The notes below the pieces were generated by a model. That model was given only the letters and a program-made list of their open reading frames with translations, ran no database searches and was not told where the DNA came from. The position numbers and the translations under genes are program-made. From Vicinamibacteria bacterium (GTDB lineage: Bacteria > Acidobacteriota > Vicinamibacteria > Fen-336): a stretch of 64,000 nt of DNA. The DNA lies in contig CAUZDW010000015.1 in NCBI GenBank assembly GCA_963578825.1, positions 6,703-70,702 on the forward strand, read 5' to 3'. Shown here piece by piece: positions 55,149-62,009 of the stretch. Position 1 is the stretch's first letter. Each line of letters opens with the position of its first letter.

Positions 55149-57842
55149 TCATCTCGGCGCTCCGCGAGCGAGGACCGGCTCCCCCACTCCGCTCGAGAGC
55201 CTGTTGACCGTGTGCGAGATCTCACGAACCACCATGGTGCCGTCCGCGGCCTTGAGGACGAGCGAGAGCTGCATCTGATCCACCTCCTGCAGGTCCTCCA
55301 TTTTGAGCGTGACCGTTCTTCCGTCCGGGGCGAGACTGGCGCCGAGGACCGTGACCGCTTCGGTTCCCTGCTCCCCGTCGAGCTTGAACAGGTCCGAACC
55401 GTAGCGGCTGCTGCGCCGGTAGTTCCAGCGACGCACGTCGTAGCTGTCGGTGTTCTCCGCTGACACACGGTCGAGGGGCTCGGTGAACGTGATCGAGATG
55501 CCGTCTTTCCCGCTCACGTGGAGCTCGGTGGGCATGTGGAGCGGTCCACCTTCGTAGCGCACCCGATAGAAGCCGCCGTCCGCCTTCTTCTTGGTCCCCC
55601 AGCCACGAAGCCCGGTCACGTAGAGCTGACCATCCTTCTTGCGAAAGTCGGGGCGCATCAAGCCGGTGTCGAAGTCGACCGGTAGCTCCACGGCTCCTCC
55701 TTGAAGCGTGGCGCCGACGCGCTCCATCAGGACCAGGAAGATCTTGCCCCGCCCATACGACGCGTGGACGAGATGCCCTTCGAGGGGTCCCCATCGGGCA
55801 TCCGGCACCCAGGCCTGCCCGCCCCCGGAGTTGTCGGCGCTGATCGGGAGATAGGTGATGGGACGGTCATAGTCGTCCACGCCCGAGGGCCCGATGCCGC
55901 CACCCCAGGCGTACCCGTAGTAGCCGCCGGGCTCGCACATGACGATGGGAGTCGAGGGGATCCAGTGGCCTTCCTGGTCGGACGTCGTGATCTGGCCCTC
56001 GGGCCCTATCGCTACGCCGTTCGGCACCCGGAAGCCTCGGCAGACGATCTCGAGCGTCTCTCCGGACGGATCGAGCTTCATGATCACGCCGTGATGGTCG
56101 ACCCGGGCCGGGAGCGCGTGGCGCGCCGCCTTGGCAAAGTAGAAGTTGCCGTCACGATCCCGATCGAGATCGAACGTGAACTCGTGAAAGTGGTGTGTGG
56201 CGAGGAAATCGTTGTTGAAGTTCTCGTAGAAATCCGCTTCGCCATCGTCGTTGAGATCGTGCAGCCGCGTGACCTGGTTGCGGTCTAGAACGTAGACCGT
56301 GCCGTCCACGACCTCGGCGCCCTGGGGCTGGTAGAACCCGGTGGCGTAGCGCCGCCAGACGAGCTCATCGAGATCGGCGTCGACGCCGTCGACGATCCAG
56401 ACGTCGCCGCTCCAGGTGGTGATCACGGCGCGGTCTTCCCCCTCGAAGAACGCGAAGTCTCCGGGGCGCATCCACGACTTCCAGGGGTTATCGGTGGGCA
56501 GTGTGATCTCGTCGACGACATAGGGGCCGGAGGCCGTACCGAGACGCCCACGAGTCGTCACCGTCTCCGGAAAGCGGGGAGGCCCTCCCCGAGTGAGCCT
56601 CGCCAGTGACCGCGACGCTTTCGCCCTCCGAATCACCGCGGCCAGGCGCGCCGGGTCCGCGCCCCTGGCGAAGAAAAGAGTCCACCTGCGGGTCTCATGG
56701 GAGGGCGGAAGGCGCAGGCGGATCTGCTCGCCATCGAGATGCCAACGGGCATCGCCGATCCCGACGAGCCCCACCAGCAACGGGCCGGCCTCGACGAGCG
56801 TCTTGCTGGCCAGCCCGGCTCCGGGCTCGAGCGAGGTCAGGTCGAGGAGCCGGGGATCACCGGAGGCCTCGGCGACCTGCAGCCCCATCTCCTTTTCGCT
56901 CGGCGCCACCTCCAGTGTCCGGGTGACGATCTCCAGACCGTCCCGGTTCTCGAAGCCGGGCAGATCCAGTACGGCGACGCCGCCGACCACATAGGAAAAG
57001 ACGACCTGGTCGCCGTGGACGGAGTAGCCGCGGTACTCCGCCCAGTCCCCGGGGAGATTGCCGAACCCGTCTGGACGCGGATCGGTGAAGCGCCCGTCCC
57101 GGGCCCAGCCGGGACCGACCGGCGTCTCGAAGACCGGCTCGCCGTCGACCCAGGGGTGCGGTCCGTGCTGCCAGTCGAACACGGTCCCGGTCAGCTTCAG
57201 GAACTCGCCGGTCCACCCGACCGCGTAGCGCAGAAGCTCGGTGTCGAAGACGATTCCCGCCCGATCATCCGGCGTGAGCGAAACGGCGTGGGCCTTGTAC
57301 GTGACGTTGTCGCCCGGGGTCTTGTCGGCTCGGGGATCCTCGGGCTCGCGGACGGTGATGCTGGCGGAGATCACCGATCCGTAGTCCATATCCAGCCACT
57401 CGGTCGACTCGGTGATGGCCAGGTCCTCCACCGACGCGTCCCACTGGGCGCCCTGATCGATCCAGGCCCGGAGGATGCCAATCTCCTCGCCCGAGAGCCG
57501 GCCGCCGGTCGGGGGCATCTCGAGCCCCTCTTCGAAGCCGGCCACGAGTCGGATCAGGCGGCTGCTCTCACTGTCCCCCGACTCGATCGCCGGCAGACCC
57601 GAGTAGCCACCCCGCACCGCGTCCTTCCTGCGCCACATGCTGTAGCCGTTCATCACCACGTCCCGGCCGTGGCACTCGTAGCAGCGCGCCGCGAGGATCG
57701 GCTCCACGTCCTTCAGGAAGTCGATCTCACGGTCGACGGGGGCCGGCAGCTTCTGCGAGGCGGCGTGGGTCAACAGCGCGACGGCACCGCACGCCGCGAT
57801 CACACAACACGTTGTCAACGCTCTCAGCGGGTTCATCTTCAT
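55149..57842 (-). CDS. secreted PVC-type heme-binding CxxCH protein with a planctomycete-cytochrome-like domain and a beta-propeller (sorbosone/glucose dehydrogenase-like) body
   Basis: Signal peptide, then FLKDVEPILAARCYECHG (PSCyt1-type CxxCH). The remaining roughly 750 aa have repeat character typical of the membrane-bound-dehydrogenase-like DUF found with TIM-barrel and DUF1080 partners. Confidence 0.65.
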   Translation of the reverse strand: MKMNPLRALTTCCVIAACGAVALLTHAASQKLPAPVDREIDFLKDVEPILAARCYECHGRDVVMNGYSMWRRKDAVRGGYSGLPAIESGDSESSRLIRLVAGFEEGLEMPPTGGRLSGEEIGILRAWIDQGAQWDASVEDLAITESTEWLDMDYGSVISASITVREPEDPRADKTPGDNVTYKAHAVSLTPDDRAGIVFDTELLRYAVGWTGEFLKLTGTVFDWQHGPHPWVDGEPVFETPVGPGWARDGRFTDPRPDGFGNLPGDWAEYRGYSVHGDQVVFSYVVGGVAVLDLPGFENRDGLEIVTRTLEVAPSEKEMGLQVAEASGDPRLLDLTSLEPGAGLASKTLVEAGPLLVGLVGIGDARWHLDGEQIRLRLPPSHETRRWTLFFARGADPARLAAVIRRAKASRSLARLTRGGPPRFPETVTTRGRLGTASGPYVVDEITLPTDNPWKSWMRPGDFAFFEGEDRAVITTWSGDVWIVDGVDADLDELVWRRYATGFYQPQGAEVVDGTVYVLDRNQVTRLHDLNDDGEADFYENFNNDFLATHHFHEFTFDLDRDRDGNFYFAKAARHALPARVDHHGVIMKLDPSGETLEIVCRGFRVPNGVAIGPEGQITTSDQEGHWIPSTPIVMCEPGGYYGYAWGGGIGPSGVDDYDRPITYLPISADNSGGGQAWVPDARWGPLEGHLVHASYGRGKIFLVLMERVGATLQGGAVELPVDFDTGLMRPDFRKKDGQLYVTGLRGWGTKKKADGGFYRVRYEGGPLHMPTELHVSGKDGISITFTEPLDRVSAENTDSYDVRRWNYRRSSRYGSDLFKLDGEQGTEAVTVLGASLAPDGRTVTLKMEDLQEVDQMQLSLVLKAADGTMVVREISHTVNRLSSGVGEPVLARGAPR

Positions 57843-57854
57843 GATTGTCCCGAG

Positions 57855-58718
57855 CTACACGTCACAGAGGGCGACGGCCTCGGCGAGCCCTTGCTCCGGA
57901 TCACGGGTGGGTATGAACTCCTGACCGACGAAGCCCGTGTACCCGACGTCCAGCAGGGCTTTCATGACCGCCGGGTAGTTGATCTCCTGTCGGTCGTCCA
58001 GCTCGGCGCGTCCGGGGTTGCCCGCGGTGTGGACGTGACCGAGCAGGTCCCGATACCGGCGCAGGCGCCGGATGACGTCTCCGTTCATCACCTGCACGTG
58101 GTAGATGTCGAAGAGCAGCTTGACGTTCGGGGAATCCACGCGGCGGACGATCTCCGCGCAGTAGTCCAGATCGTCACCCTGGTATCCCGGATGCCCCTTC
58201 ATCGGGTGGGTGTCGTCGCGAGTATTGAGCTGCTCGAGGCACACCGTCACGCCTTTGGCTTCGGCGCGACTCGCCAGGATCTTCAACACTTTCACGCAGT
58301 TGTCGGCCCCCTCCGCGAGAGAGATCTCGCCGCTCGTGGAGTCCATGGCATCTCGCCACTTGTAGCCGGTGAACGCGATGACGTTCGGGACCCCGAAGTC
58401 GGCACTTTGATCGATCGCCTCGTGGGTGCGAGCAAGGACCTCCTCGTGGTACACGGTGTTGTTCAGACCCCTGGCGAAGAGGGGATCGGGCATGCCGTTC
58501 GACGCAAGCGCGCACTCCAGGCCCTGCTCTCGCAGGGTGGACCACCTCTCGGGCGGGACCAGCTCGACGCTGGGACAGCCCAGCTCACGGGCGAGTGTGC
58601 AGACACGCTCGAGATCCCAGCCCCACTCCGTGGCGTCGAGACACCACAGAACCAGCGACTGCCGGATGCGCCCGTTCTTGACCACGGGCCCCGCTCCTGC
58701 GGGCTTTTCATGTGTCAT
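57855..58718 (-). CDS. sugar phosphate isomerase/epimerase (xylose-isomerase-like TIM barrel)
   Basis: CLEQLN...HPGY...FDIYHVQVMNGD...HVHTAG... are the metal-ligand blocks of the AP-endonuclease 2 / xylose-isomerase-like fold. Confidence 0.8.
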   Translation of the reverse strand: MTHEKPAGAGPVVKNGRIRQSLVLWCLDATEWGWDLERVCTLARELGCPSVELVPPERWSTLREQGLECALASNGMPDPLFARGLNNTVYHEEVLARTHEAIDQSADFGVPNVIAFTGYKWRDAMDSTSGEISLAEGADNCVKVLKILASRAEAKGVTVCLEQLNTRDDTHPMKGHPGYQGDDLDYCAEIVRRVDSPNVKLLFDIYHVQVMNGDVIRRLRRYRDLLGHVHTAGNPGRAELDDRQEINYPAVMKALLDVGYTGFVGQEFIPTRDPEQGLAEAVALCDV

Positions 58719-58958
58719 GGCACGTCCTCGCTATCATTGGGCGGGCGGGACGCCGATCCACGGATCGGTCGGCCGGCCCGGGTAGAGTCCTTGGAACCGC
58801 GGCGCCTATTGTAGGGCCGATCGACCGGGATCAACCGCCGAGAAGGGCGTTAGACTCTGCCCGTGCCCGACTCCCGGACCACGCCGGAGGCCCCGGGCAG
58901 CCACCTCACGGAATCGGCGCGATGGTGTGCCGGCGGACCCGTGGGCAGGAGGTCGTCC

Positions 58959-59672
58959 ATGAGCTTTCCCAGGTTCTTTTCCATGCTCGTCGCGGTCCCG
59001 GCCAGTCTCGCACTTGGCTGCGCCGCCCCTCCCGCCAGCGAGGCCCCCCCCATGAGCGAACCGGCCCCCGAGGAGCGAGCGGAAAGCTTCGCCCCCCTCT
59101 TCGACGGCGAGAGCTTCGAGGGATGGGAGGGGAACCTGGACTTCTTTCGCATAGAGGACGGCGCCGTCGTCGGCGGCCGCCTGGATGACGAGATCCCACG
59201 GAACGAGTTTCTCTGCACGACCGAGGAGTACTCGGACTTCGAGCTCCGGCTCCAGGCCAGGACGTCCAGGGAGGACGCCAACGGCGGCATCCAGATTCGC
59301 TCCCACCGCATCCCCAACGAGAGCGAGGTGGTCGGCTACCAGGTCGACATCGGCCTTCTGGGCGGCGAAACGCCGATCAATATCTGGGGCGCCCTGTACG
59401 ACGAGGCGCGACGGCGCGAAATGCTGGCCGTGGCCGATCAGGACGAGCTGGCGAAGGTGATTCGTCTGGACGACTGGAACGACTACGTCATCCGCGCCCA
59501 GGGGAAGCACACGGGCATATGGATCAACGGGTATCAGACCGTGGACTACACCGAGGCCGATCCGGACATCGAGCTCACCGGAATCATCTGTCTGCAGATC
59601 CATGCCGGACCGCCTGCGGAGATCCGATACCGCAACCTGGAGATCCGGAAACCTGGAGGCTCGGGTTCGTAG
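58959..59672 (+). CDS. DUF1080-family lipoprotein (3-keto-disaccharide hydrolase-like, concanavalin-like fold)
   Basis: AGGAGG SD at 58947-58952. Signal peptide with LALGC lipobox. FDGESFEGWEGNLDFFRIEDGAVVGG...WNDYVIRAQGKHTGIWINGYQTVDY is the DUF1080 signature. Confidence 0.75.
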   Translation: MSFPRFFSMLVAVPASLALGCAAPPASEAPPMSEPAPEERAESFAPLFDGESFEGWEGNLDFFRIEDGAVVGGRLDDEIPRNEFLCTTEEYSDFELRLQARTSREDANGGIQIRSHRIPNESEVVGYQVDIGLLGGETPINIWGALYDEARRREMLAVADQDELAKVIRLDDWNDYVIRAQGKHTGIWINGYQTVDYTEADPDIELTGIICLQIHAGPPAEIRYRNLEIRKPGGSGS

Positions 59673-59706
59673 GGCGCCGACCACCGCAGGCGTGCCGCCG
59701 GTGGTG

Positions 59707-61020
59707 CTACCAGGCCACGAGGGAATCCTCGAACAGCTGGGTCAGCTCCTTCTCCGCCGCCGGCCGCGGCGCGAGCTTGGTAACCCGTTCCTGGGGCAGC
59801 GTACCCTGGACCAGGGCCGGAATGTCGGACCGGCTGTAGCCGACTCCCTCCAGTCCGTTGGGAACATTCAAGCGTTGCATGAGCCCGACGATCCGATCCG
59901 ACAGGATCTCTCCCGCGTCTTCCGGTCGCGCCCGTGACACGTCGGCCCCCAGGATCTCGGCGGCCAGGAGATGGCGGTCGGGACACGCCTCGGCGGTGAA
60001 CCGGAAGACCGACGGCGCGTTCAGGATCACGGACATGCCGTGGGGCACGATCGGATGGTCATCCGGGTAACCCTCCGGGCGAAACTCCCGGACCATCCCG
60101 GACACGGGATACGACATCCCGTGGGGAAGGTGTACGCCGGCGTTTCCGAAGCCGACGCCCGCGTAAGAGGCCGCCAGCAGCATGCGCTCCCGGGCCTCCT
60201 GGTCGTCGGGGTCCTCCACGGCGCGGACCAGATACCTCGACACCATCCGCAGCGCCTCCAGCGACCAGACGTCGCTGATCGGGTTCGAGCCTTGATACGC
60301 CGGTCGGAGCAGAGGTCGCTCCGGGTGCGGGCGGCGGTGGAACGGAAGCGCCGTGAACGACTCGATGGCGTGGCTCAGCACGTCGAAGCCGCTCGCGACC
60401 GCGACCTGCCGGGGCAGGGTGCGCGTGTTCTCCGGGTCGAGGATGCCCAGCATGGGCCTGAGACGCCGATGGGCGATTCCCGTCTTGGCGTGCAGCTTCG
60501 TGAAGTCGAAGATCGCCGCCCCGGTGGTCTCGCTCCCGGTTCCCGCCGTCGTCGGCACCGCGATCAACGGCTTGAGGGCGCCGGGGATCGGAAGGCCCTT
60601 GCCGATCGGGGGGTTCACGTAGTCCAGGAAGTCCGCGACGGGATAGGTGGAGTACAGGTCCGCCACCTTCGCGGTGTCGATGGTGGAGCCGCCGCCCACC
60701 GCCACGAATGCGTCGAAGTCCCCCTGCAGAGCGGCATCGATCGCTTCCTGGAAGGACGTGTCCGTCGGCTCGACCCGCACACGATCGAACAAGGAGAACT
60801 CGATCCCGTTGTCGCTCAAAGACTCGAGCACCGTAGCGACCGGCGAGAGCCTGGCTAGATTGCGGTCCGTGAGCACCATCGTTCGTCGGGCCTTCATCTC
60901 GGCCAGGTCGAGGCCGATCTCGCGGGTCACCCCGGACCCGAAACGAATGCTGGAGCTGGCCATCTCGAAGGCGGTCTCGCGGGGCATGGCCGGGAGTATA
61001 CGGGACTTGCCCGCGGGCAC
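59707..61020 (-). CDS. iron-containing alcohol dehydrogenase (hydroxyacid-oxoacid transhydrogenase-like)
   Basis: VAVGGGSTIDTAKV is GGGSxxD, followed by AVPTTAGTGSETT and the His-rich metal site (VHLPHGMSYPV...HGMS). The true start is probably MPRETAF at about 60987. Confidence 0.85.
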   Translation of the reverse strand: MPAGKSRILPAMPRETAFEMASSSIRFGSGVTREIGLDLAEMKARRTMVLTDRNLARLSPVATVLESLSDNGIEFSLFDRVRVEPTDTSFQEAIDAALQGDFDAFVAVGGGSTIDTAKVADLYSTYPVADFLDYVNPPIGKGLPIPGALKPLIAVPTTAGTGSETTGAAIFDFTKLHAKTGIAHRRLRPMLGILDPENTRTLPRQVAVASGFDVLSHAIESFTALPFHRRPHPERPLLRPAYQGSNPISDVWSLEALRMVSRYLVRAVEDPDDQEARERMLLAASYAGVGFGNAGVHLPHGMSYPVSGMVREFRPEGYPDDHPIVPHGMSVILNAPSVFRFTAEACPDRHLLAAEILGADVSRARPEDAGEILSDRIVGLMQRLNVPNGLEGVGYSRSDIPALVQGTLPQERVTKLAPRPAAEKELTQLFEDSLVAW

Positions 61021-61157
61021 TCTGTCGCCCGGGCGGCGATGCGATATAGGATGCCCGGACGCAGATCGTTCCGAGGATATGCCCGACGGCGGAGGGGAGC
61101 ATGGCGGTCTATCGGCGAAAAGGTGGACGTCGCCGCCGCCGGAGAGACGCGGTCGCC

Positions 61158-62009
61158 GTGAGAGAGAGCTCGGGTCGATCCGAGAGGGCGCGGCAGCGCG
61201 AGCGGCAGCCGGTCCGGAGCGACACGACGATCCACGAGTGGCCCGAGGCCGGCCTCGTGCTGTTTCACGGACCGGCCGATCCCGAGGCGTCTGTCCGGGT
61301 CGAGTCCGGTCGGATCGTGGAGCTCGACGGCCGGAGCGAGGACGACTTCGATTCCCTCGATCGCTTCATTGCGCGCCACGCGATCGATCCGGAGGTGGCC
61401 GAGGAGGCCATGGCTCTCCCGCCGCTCGAGCTGGCACGACGACTCTTCGACCCGCACACCGACGCCTCCTCCGTGCGGCGGCTTTTCGGGGGACTGACGC
61501 CCGCCCGGCTCGTCGACGTGGTCTCGGAGCTCGACGTCCTCGAGATGATGCTGTCCGCGAGGAAGATGCGGCTCCGCAACCGGGTCGCCAACCAGGCCCA
61601 TGTCACCAACCTCCGCGACCACCCCGCCCTCCTCGCCGCGGACGCGGCTGAAGCCGCCCTCCGTGGCTTCGCCGAGGTCGAGACGACGGTCGGGGTGGCC
61701 GGTCTCACGCCGCTCAACGCGGTAGCGGTCCTGATCGGCTCGCAGGTGGGTCGCCCCGGGGTGCTGACCCAGGCGGCTGTCGAGGAGGGCGTCAACCTCC
61801 GACTGGCGATGAAGGGCCTGGTGAGCTACGCGGAGACGCTCTCCGTCTACGGCAACGAGGACCGCCGATCTGCTGACTGCCAATCAGCAGCGGCCTGGAA
61901 AGCTCCCTCCCTAGAGGAGCTTGCCGGGTGTGGTCACCGAATGGTCACCAGGAACTGGCTTCCGAAGCCCGGTTACGCGACTGGCACGCTTCCGCCCGTC
62001 GAGGGATGA
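61158..62009 (+). pseudogene. N-terminal about 45% of a coenzyme-B12-dependent diol/glycerol dehydratase large subunit (PduC/DhaB1-like); the rest of the gene is missing
   Basis: VELDGRSEDDFDSLDRFIARHAIDPEVAEEAMAL...RLVDVVSELDVLEMMLSARKMRLRNRVANQAHVTNLRDHPALLAADAAEAALRGFAEVETTVGVAGLTPLNAVAVLIGSQVGRPGVLTQAAVEEGVNLRLAMKGLVSYAETLSVYGNE is collinear with PduC residues about 45-260. Similarity stops at about 61860 and the frame terminates at 62009. No medium or small subunit genes follow. Confidence 0.7.

Follow-up and report, generated by a model that had tools for sequence, protein, structure and literature searches.

Cleavage of glycosides by oxidation, elimination and hydration has been recognised only recently, and it is known with two kinds of oxidase, namely Gfo/Idh/MocA (hereafter Gfo) enzymes with bound NAD and flavoproteins. 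ThuB is a Gfo/Idh/MocA enzyme, and LacA is a flavoprotein of the GMC (glucose-methanol-choline)/FAD type. The described clusters to which we compare our locus are BT2156-BT2160 of Bacteroides thetaiotaomicron and AL1-AL5 of Alistipes (PMC8121099; bioRxiv 10.1101/2024.03.25.586180). ThuAB is a known system forming 3-keto-disaccharides (PMC8121099), and, according to PMC8121099 and PMC9007349, LacABC/G3DH and ThuAB oxidise glycosides in the periplasm and deliver electrons to cytochrome c, LacABC being encoded near DUF1080 genes. The locus described here lies in a 64,000-nucleotide stretch of a Vicinamibacteria genome (contig CAUZDW010000015.1, about 68% G+C; this whole stretch is the window below). 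It comprises the genes for an exported haem-propeller protein, which we call BIG, for a triosephosphate-isomerase-type (TIM) barrel protein, and for a DUF1080 lipoprotein. A first-pass annotation had taken the three for an oxidative module acting through 3-keto-glycosides. The literature link that it drew from DUF1080 proteins and sugar-phosphate-isomerase-type TIM barrels to 3-keto-glycoside cleavage was indeed found in published work (bioRxiv 10.1101/2024.03.25.586180; PMC8121099; PMC9007349).

In our view, BIG probably serves as a carbohydrate dehydrogenase of the periplasm that is linked to cytochrome c and works with the DUF1080 protein. This view is built on predicted sequence features and a structural model, and its basis is the replacement of one gene by another at a conserved position, gene fusions, adjacency statistics and the fold of the propeller. 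That the whole locus represents the oxidative (3-keto) glycoside-utilisation cluster of Bacteroides and Alistipes (BT2156-2160/AL1-5) in a form specific to this lineage seems plausible to us, if somewhat short of probable. The specific 3-keto-glycoside mechanism might apply at this locus, and we put it forward with much the same confidence.

Open reading frames and domain matches confirmed the three genes between positions 55149 and 59672, and profile hidden Markov model (HMM) annotation agreed with the DUF1080, AP_endonuc_2 and PSCyt1-type assignments made for them beforehand. BIG (55149..57842, minus strand, 897 aa) was delimited by its open reading frame and its Pfam and NCBIfam matches. 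The TIM gene (57855..58718, minus strand, 287 aa) matches AP_endonuc_2 (PF01261) at 97 bits. The DUF1080 (3keto-disac_hyd) lipoprotein gene occupies 58959..59672 on the plus strand (237 aa; the mechanically called open reading frame begins at 58863). TIM and BIG point in the same direction and are separated by 12 nt, and they are thus almost certainly co-transcribed. The DUF1080 gene diverges from this pair across about 240 bp, so the three genes do not form one operon. As the 64-kb window holds no second TIM-family or DUF1080 gene, and as the layout recurs in related contigs, the clustering of the three genes looks non-random.

Like the Bacteroides and Alistipes clusters, the locus is small and brings together an exported oxidoreductase and a TIM barrel of the xylose-isomerase type, and its DUF1080 protein carries a predicted lipoprotein signal, as does AL2, the counterpart of BT2157. 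It differs from them in three respects. Its oxidoreductase is a Sec-exported protein joining cytochrome c to a propeller, whereas AL3/BT2158 is a Gfo enzyme with bound NAD(P) exported by the twin-arginine (Tat) pathway; its TIM barrel is cytoplasmic and of the Hyi/OtnI-like kind, unlike the Sec-exported lyase type of AL1/BT2156; and it has neither a cytosolic Gfo reductase nor an adjacent regulator. Domain scans and gene calls revealed no Gfo/Idh/MocA gene in or beside the cluster, and the domain scan of BIG and its neighbours gave no FAD or GMC domain. BIG thus resembles neither LacA nor ThuB in its domains, and its placement in a periplasmic oxidation route of the LacABC or ThuAB kind is a proposal.

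The match lists of TIM and DUF1080 repeatedly share contigs, which allowed a comparison of the surroundings of these genes. Locus maps were drawn from the annotated related contigs with the TIM gene pointing right. The window then reads as an iron-containing alcohol dehydrogenase (Fe-ADH) gene pointing right, DUF1080 pointing left, and TIM and BIG pointing right. Locus L093 has an MR_MLE gene and DUF1080 pointing left, followed by TIM and BIG pointing right. In L083/84, a TIM352 gene, a gene for a 962-aa TIGR02604-HEAT-CxxCH protein and DUF1080 point left, while two sulfatase genes, TIM and BIG point right. In L086, a gene for a fusion of a pyrroloquinoline quinone (PQQ) dehydrogenase, cytochrome c and DUF1080 is followed by TIM, BIG and a TonB-receptor gene, all pointing right, and L002 shows a TIM with a Tat signal followed by BIG. 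L087 and L091 have a levoglucosan-dehydrogenase-like Gfo gene (called in L087 only), TIM350 and DUF1080 pointing left, and TIM, a Gfo of about 450 aa and a HEAT protein pointing right. In a further contig from the Joint Genome Institute (JGI), genes for a major facilitator superfamily (MFS) protein, an unassigned protein, a Gfo, TIM350 and DUF1080 point left, and TIM and a transposase gene point right.

The divergent DUF1080/TIM pair is thus common to the window, L093, L087, L091 and further contigs. What follows TIM varies: it is BIG in the window, L093, L083/84, L086 and L002, and the Gfo together with the HEAT protein in L087 and L091. The Gfo of L087 carries a twin-arginine signal (read as SSRRAFLG...), and its best NCBIfam match is the BT_2158_fam glycoside 3-dehydrogenase (E 3e-41, below the family cutoff). 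As the exported Gfo, the cytosolic Gfo, the DUF1080 lipoprotein and the TIM barrel are all there, loci of the L087 type have the gene content of the Bacteroides and Alistipes clusters; L087 and L091 hold essentially the full set, the second TIM included. Judging from these gene orders, BIG stands in the window's lineage where loci of the L087 type have the exported Gfo with the HEAT protein, a non-orthologous replacement in a conserved context. This is the strongest argument for BIG as the oxidising partner. The 12-nt spacer between TIM and BIG is kept in five genomes, whose BIG proteins are 67-88% identical to that of the window.

Some further features of these loci deserve mention. The BT2158-like Tat-Gfo gene is always followed by the gene for the exported HEAT-repeat protein (about 648 aa; L087:9253-11199 and L091:5504-7447). 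We considered the L087 HEAT protein as a hidden cytochrome and rejected the idea because that copy has no CxxCH. HEAT repeats also join the propeller to the haem domain in the haem proteins of the PVC (Planctomycetes-Verrucomicrobia-Chlamydiae) type. The fusion directly upstream of TIM-BIG in L086 (L086:3898-6732, 944 aa) consists of a propeller of the membrane-type PQQ glucose/quinate dehydrogenases, a cytochrome c and a C-terminal DUF1080 domain. A search of the 350-aa TIM of L087 against PDB sequences gave no matches.

BIG begins with an export signal and the haem domain. A Sec signal peptide (57762..57842, minus strand, about residues 1-27, MKMNPLRALTTCCVIAACGAVALLTHA) was predicted from the translation, and the AlphaFold (AF2) model places a hydrophobic, signal-like helix at residues 5-28. 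Attachment of c-type haem requires export to the periplasm. The signal is followed by a PSCyt1 class-I cytochrome c domain (57504..57683, minus strand, residues 54-113; PF07635, 43.3 bits against a cutoff of 22) with a single CYECH motif at residues 54-58 and Met109-Pro110 as the likely axial position. All 29 homologues with this domain keep C54, C57, H58, M109 and P110 in the alignment, and the profile alignment matches the domain to cytochrome c6, including its Met-Pro ligand motif. BIG thus has the features of an exported class-I c-type cytochrome domain (CxxCH, distal Met and signal sequence), and haem attachment is predicted. In L093, a second gene with a PSCyt1 domain begins right after BIG (38% identical over residues 41-136).

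The remainder of BIG was described with an AF2 model built from an alignment of 40 homologues, which is confident (mean predicted local distance difference test, pLDDT, 87; predicted template modelling score, pTM, 0.83). In it, the helical cytochrome domain is followed by an all-beta region (about residues 150-420) that contains DUF6797, then by a six-bladed beta-propeller (55503..56564, minus strand, about residues 427-780, supported by invariant columns and the fold match given below) and a C-terminal beta-sandwich (55173..55502, minus strand, about residues 781-890, from the AF2 secondary structure). The DUF6797 domain itself (56964..57254, minus strand, residues 197-293; PF20601) scores 96.1 bits against a cutoff of 24.9 over the entire length of the model. 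It is well modelled within full-length BIG; modelled alone, it reached a pLDDT of 68 and gave weak matches to the N-terminal beta-sandwich domains of glycoside hydrolases, and because of this low confidence and these weak matches the isolated model was not used as evidence. The literature searched contained no mention of DUF6797, nor any description of a PQQ- or haem-propeller glycoside 3-dehydrogenase.

Sequence profiles gave the propeller weak NHL, SGL and TIGR02604 matches. In a Foldseek search against the PDB its top matches were 2ism, 8re0, 1cq1 and 3das (probability 1.0). PQQ glucose and aldose dehydrogenases ranked first, the best being 2ism (TTHA0570) with a target-normalised TM score of 0.71. 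The soluble quinoprotein glucose dehydrogenase of Acinetobacter (sGDH) is represented by 1cq1, 1c9u and further entries, and the aldose sugar dehydrogenase of Streptomyces by 3das. BIG thus shares the six-bladed fold with the family of A. calcoaceticus sGDH, TTHA0570 and Streptomyces Adh (Pfam GSDH). Across 40 diverse homologues, H553, R605, N608, D622, G625, W627, R730, R760 and R762 are invariant. A profile search aligned BIG 586-645 to sGDH 216-273, a marginal and local match (E about 0.4), and hhalign gave the same register with a provisional sGDH sequence and residue numbering. In this register GFRVPNG, SDQEG and GGYYGY of BIG lie opposite GHRNPQG, SEQGP and GGNYGW of sGDH, the blade that binds PQQ and Ca2+ there. 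R605, N608, D622/Q623 and GGYYGY would accordingly face R228, Q231, E245/Q246 and GGNYGW (provisional sGDH numbering). In the PQQ blade the likeness, based partly on the provisional sequence, may then include the Arg, the Gln/Asp positions and the GG-aromatic-G-aromatic motif. Unlike the sGDH family, to which its sequence similarity is marginal (E about 0.3 at the HMM level), BIG adds the DUF6797 beta region and the C-terminal beta-sandwich. The fungal AA12 pyranose dehydrogenase is fused to cytochrome b. BIG likewise carries a fused cytochrome as its own electron outlet; it differs from the sGDH and AA12 enzymes in that its haem is predicted to be c-type and N-terminal. With its invariant haem residues and the fold match of its modelled propeller, BIG looks like a redox enzyme.

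Several observations weigh against BIG as the oxidising partner in a 3-keto-glycoside cluster, and we set them out in this and the next three paragraphs together with the rival explanations. The first concern the chemistry. To our knowledge, the characterised enzymes with the sGDH fold oxidise the anomeric C1 of free aldoses and not C3 of glycosides. BIG has no match to Pfam GSDH (PF07995), which is carried by a few distant members of its family (P0112, P0117), and it reaches 27 bits with TIGR02604, for which the cutoff is 122; membership of BIG in either group at the sequence level was rejected, both being below threshold. Moreover, H553 is a candidate for the equivalent of His144 of sGDH, and R760/R762 for those of R406/R408; these residues lie outside the tool alignments. 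The earlier proposal of the haem-propeller protein as oxidant in place of a GMC flavoenzyme is therefore upheld in part: the slot of the BT2158-like homologue, the DUF1080-BIG fusions and the enrichment of DUF1080 genes given below speak for it, and the usual C1 chemistry of the fold speaks against it.

The main rival starts from this chemistry. BIG would be a periplasmic cytochrome-c-linked aldose 1-dehydrogenase of the sGDH/AA12 type, converting free reducing sugars to lactones; its neighbours would supply an aldonate dehydratase, a 2-oxo-acid isomerase and an aldehyde reductase to an oxidative sugar-acid route, and DUF1080 would bind or cleave glycans and would be no 3-keto lyase. The fold family and the partly conserved PQQ-site motifs agree with sGDH, and the best NCBIfam matches of the TIM barrel are OtnI (2-oxo-tetronate isomerase, 105 bits against a cutoff of 325) and Hyi (hydroxypyruvate isomerase, 98 against 353), both limited to its C-terminal two thirds. 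The gene co-transcribed with DUF1080 in L093 encodes an MR_MLE aldonate-dehydratase homologue of the arabinonate/galactonate type. In the window, the Fe-ADH, similar to ErcA and lactaldehyde reductase, stands beside a diol-dehydratase remnant, a pairing expected after cleavage of deoxy-sugar acids. PMC9007349 cites a report of one DUF1080 protein acting as an endo-glycanase. However, this route leaves unexplained why BIG takes the place of a homologue of BT2158-like glycoside 3-dehydrogenase, as well as the DUF1080-BIG fusions and the ThuA-like neighbours; the MR_MLE gene and the Fe-ADH occur in one lineage each, and the diol dehydratase is truncated. We thus regard C1 oxidation as unlikely, and still prefer BIG as a dehydrogenase acting together with DUF1080.

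The second group of observations concerns conservation. The BIG family is large (1,049 clusters at 50% identity with E <= 1e-30), and we surveyed the neighbours in 80 BIG-family genome loci from Acidobacteriota, Verrucomicrobiota and Planctomycetota. The window's TIM subfamily adjoins BIG in just one of these genomes, so the recurrence claimed for the trio in the PVC superphylum and Acidobacteria did not hold. BLAST clustering of the loci revealed no widely shared neighbour. In the Pfam scan of immediate neighbours cytochrome c was the sole recurrent family, AP_endonuc_2 was outside the 25 commonest families on either side, and DUF1080 was found at 2 of 77 upstream and 2 of 75 downstream positions. 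The closest named relatives of BIG, from Bryobacterales metagenome-assembled genomes (Acidobacteriota), are 60-67% identical to it, and Bryobacterales orthologues of about 60% identity adjoin esterase/amidohydrolase/ThiC or POT/GHL10/Gfo genes. The TIM-BIG layout occurs in a narrow clade only, with Bryobacterales as its nearest named relatives, and the contigs that carry the slot-replacement argument are few and related. Two proteins of the sister loci, the AL1-like TIM of about 350 aa and the cytosolic Gfo, are, furthermore, missing from the window. It could then be argued that the three genes are neighbours without a common pathway, that is, a general Hyi-like isomerase, an independent periplasmic DUF1080 protein and an uncharacterised redox protein, BIG, inserted by rearrangement. 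The lack of a conserved BIG neighbour across the 80 loci fits this, as do the varied contexts of the very widespread TIM family (at least 7998 matches) and the frequent insertion elements and rearrangements at these loci. Set against it are the TIM-BIG spacer preserved in five genomes, the conserved divergent promoter region, the adjacency of the window's sole TIM and DUF1080 genes, and the significant enrichment of DUF1080 beside, and its fusion to, BIG-family genes. Of the genes at most two positions from BIG, 6 of 284 are DUF1080 genes, compared with 2 of 574 farther off within these loci (odds ratio 6.2, Fisher p = 0.018). The six near-BIG DUF1080 genes belong to other DUF1080 subfamilies and all share the strand of BIG. 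Fusions of the form DUF1080-PA14-DUF6797-propeller were found in at least two lineages, as P0091 and in a Tepidisphaeraceae locus (L060). Co-occurrence statistics thus gave no linkage of the trio across phyla, and did give a DUF1080/TIM pair kept in a narrow clade and DUF1080 enriched near BIG-family genes. A mere chance neighbourhood appears to us distinctly improbable.

The TIM barrel provides the remaining objections. It lacks a signal peptide and must therefore act in the cytoplasm. Its nearest PDB entries are 3ngf and 1k77, and 3ngf, YgbM, ketose 3-epimerases and YcjR resemble it far more than do 8qrz, 8qvc and 7bvr, which may be lyases and C-glycoside enzymes; with 8qrz and 8qvc it gives E values of 0.015-0.2 only. 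In a TIM-centred test on 80 metagenome loci (TIM 60-72% identical), BIG was beside none and DUF1080 beside one, and the commonest neighbours were NAD epimerases and MOFRL/DUF4147 proteins, the latter of the glycerate-kinase type. The TIM family as a whole is thus not dedicated to the module; copies about 70% identical occur even in Nevskia, a gammaproteobacterium. The view that the window's TIM belongs to the implicated lyase family finds no support on these grounds, and by sequence its role as a lyase is doubtful. Tat signals occur in about 40% of the sampled members of the TIM family (loci L094-L173) and in none of the window's clade, while the L002 copy beside BIG has one. As the signal is present in part of the members only, this one family appears to be active on both sides of the membrane.

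Across the BIG family the cytochrome partner is shuffled: it is an N-terminal PSCyt1 domain (in the Bryobacterales-type clade only), a C-terminal Cytochrom_C domain or a separate downstream gene, and a cytochrome c gene lies directly downstream of BIG in 9 of 75 loci. The PA14, malectin or Laminin_G_3 modules found in other members speak for a carbohydrate context. In two close relatives without the TIM (L001, L085), divergent ThuA-like genes lie 10-20 nt after BIG, a likeness to ThuAB. The family cluster counts 127 members in the 80 loci (L003-L082), many of which hold at least two BIG-family genes within 10 kb.

PVC-type haem-binding CxxCH proteins (TIGR02604, HEAT and TIGR02603) resemble BIG in combining an exported propeller with c-type haem and are likewise abundant in Verrucomicrobiota, Planctomycetota and Acidobacteriota. 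In L083, a member of 962 aa forms an operon with the DUF1080 orthologue and another TIM barrel. BIG differs from them in its score far under the TIGR02604 cutoff, in having DUF6797 and no HEAT repeats, and in its N-terminal PSCyt1 haem domain as opposed to the C-terminal TIGR02603, for which the NCBIfam scan of BIG gave no match. One member, Lac161_ORF7 from a Chthoniobacter-like clone (TIGR02604, HEAT and cytochrome c), is active on lactose: the purified protein cleaved it with a Km of 1.8 mM, and its gene rescued a Lac- Sinorhizobium meliloti strain and not Escherichia coli, the authors calling it a beta-galactosidase (PMC5342196). By analogy, this host pattern would fit an oxidative mechanism that needs cytochrome maturation and downstream 3-keto enzymes. 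BIG might alternatively be itself a non-Koshland glycoside-cleaving enzyme like Lac161_ORF7, its haem serving another purpose. The release of products from lactose by the purified protein (PMC5342196) and the related DUF7133 signature in some BIG-family proteins are in line with this. Nevertheless, the TIGR02604 score of BIG is far too low, the mechanism of Lac161_ORF7 was never established and could be oxidative too, and the shuffled cytochrome partners argue that electron transfer is the core function. We consider direct cleavage by BIG very unlikely and keep to its role as a dehydrogenase.

The DUF1080 gene matches PF06439 at E 9e-37, and the nearest PDB entries to its product are 4jqt and 3hbk. 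The ATG at 58959 is preceded by AGGAGGTC, a strong Shine-Dalgarno sequence conserved in relatives, and as the public gene call (237 aa) uses the same start, it is almost certainly the true one. Translation from it gives MSFPRFFSMLVAVPASLALGC..., a lipoprotein-type signal with the lipobox LALGC. The divergent intergenic region between TIM and DUF1080 (58719..58958, without strand), which includes this Shine-Dalgarno sequence, a TACAAT element and short inverted repeats, can be aligned among the window, L093, L087 and L091. The TACAATAGGC element and the inverted repeats (e.g. CCGATCC-GTG-GATCGG) are kept across loci that differ in the downstream oxidoreductase, and from their sequence they could be a shared promoter and operator. 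A promoter scan of the region found no sigma-70 consensus, and in the window no regulator gene adjoins it.

The Fe-ADH gene (59707..61020, minus strand; Pfam and NCBIfam matches), noted earlier as lying immediately downstream, is present and adjacent. However, it is convergent to DUF1080 and so neither downstream of the module nor co-transcribed with it, and it is not conserved: its position is taken by the MR_MLE dehydratase gene in L093, and there is no Fe-ADH in L083, L087 and L091. We rejected it as part of the module for these reasons, and it is probably not one. Its best scores are with ErcA and lactaldehyde reductase, about equal (both E about 3e-56). Between the convergent stop codons of DUF1080 and Fe-ADH (59673-59706) lies a GC-rich hairpin (CCACCG ... 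CGGTGG), which by its sequence looks like a bidirectional terminator, though without a T-run. Beyond Fe-ADH, a 302-aa open reading frame (61101-62009, plus strand) matches positions 2-230 of the 552-position model of the diol/glycerol dehydratase large subunit; a SIR2 gene follows directly, and no medium or small dehydratase subunits are found there. This frame looks like a truncated diol dehydratase remnant, and the equivalent place in L093 keeps a 62-aa piece of diol dehydratase, 85% identical.

Taken as a dehydrogenase working with DUF1080, BIG would be exported by the Sec route and be loaded with a single c-type haem once in the periplasm. The sGDH-like propeller, the cofactor of which is probably PQQ or something similar, would oxidise a sugar hydroxyl of a glycoside, and the electrons would pass through the fused cytochrome c domain to the respiratory chain. 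The DUF1080 lipoprotein might then perform elimination and hydration of the keto-glycoside, and the keto-sugar product would be imported for processing in the cytoplasm by the Hyi/OtnI-like TIM-barrel isomerase that is co-transcribed with BIG. In this scheme we infer the cofactor, the substrate, C3 as the position of oxidation and the role of the TIM barrel.

A wider and more speculative idea, which we think rather unlikely as it stands, is that the DUF6797-propeller family forms a new class of cytochrome-c-linked (quinohaemo)protein glycoside dehydrogenases. In Acidobacteriota, Verrucomicrobiota and Planctomycetota living aerobically in soil and fresh water, such proteins would take the part that NAD-bound Gfo enzymes play in gut Bacteroides, initiating a non-hydrolytic glycoside cleavage that depends on DUF1080 and sending the electrons directly to respiration. 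If the haem-propeller protein is indeed the oxidant, this would for the first time assign a function to a very large family of uncharacterised proteins and suggest an oxidative reading of the "novel beta-galactosidase" Lac161_ORF7. It would also help to explain the expansion of DUF1080 and of the PVC-type haem proteins in soil and freshwater bacteria, and would mean that glycoside cleavage can be coupled to energy conservation via cytochrome c.

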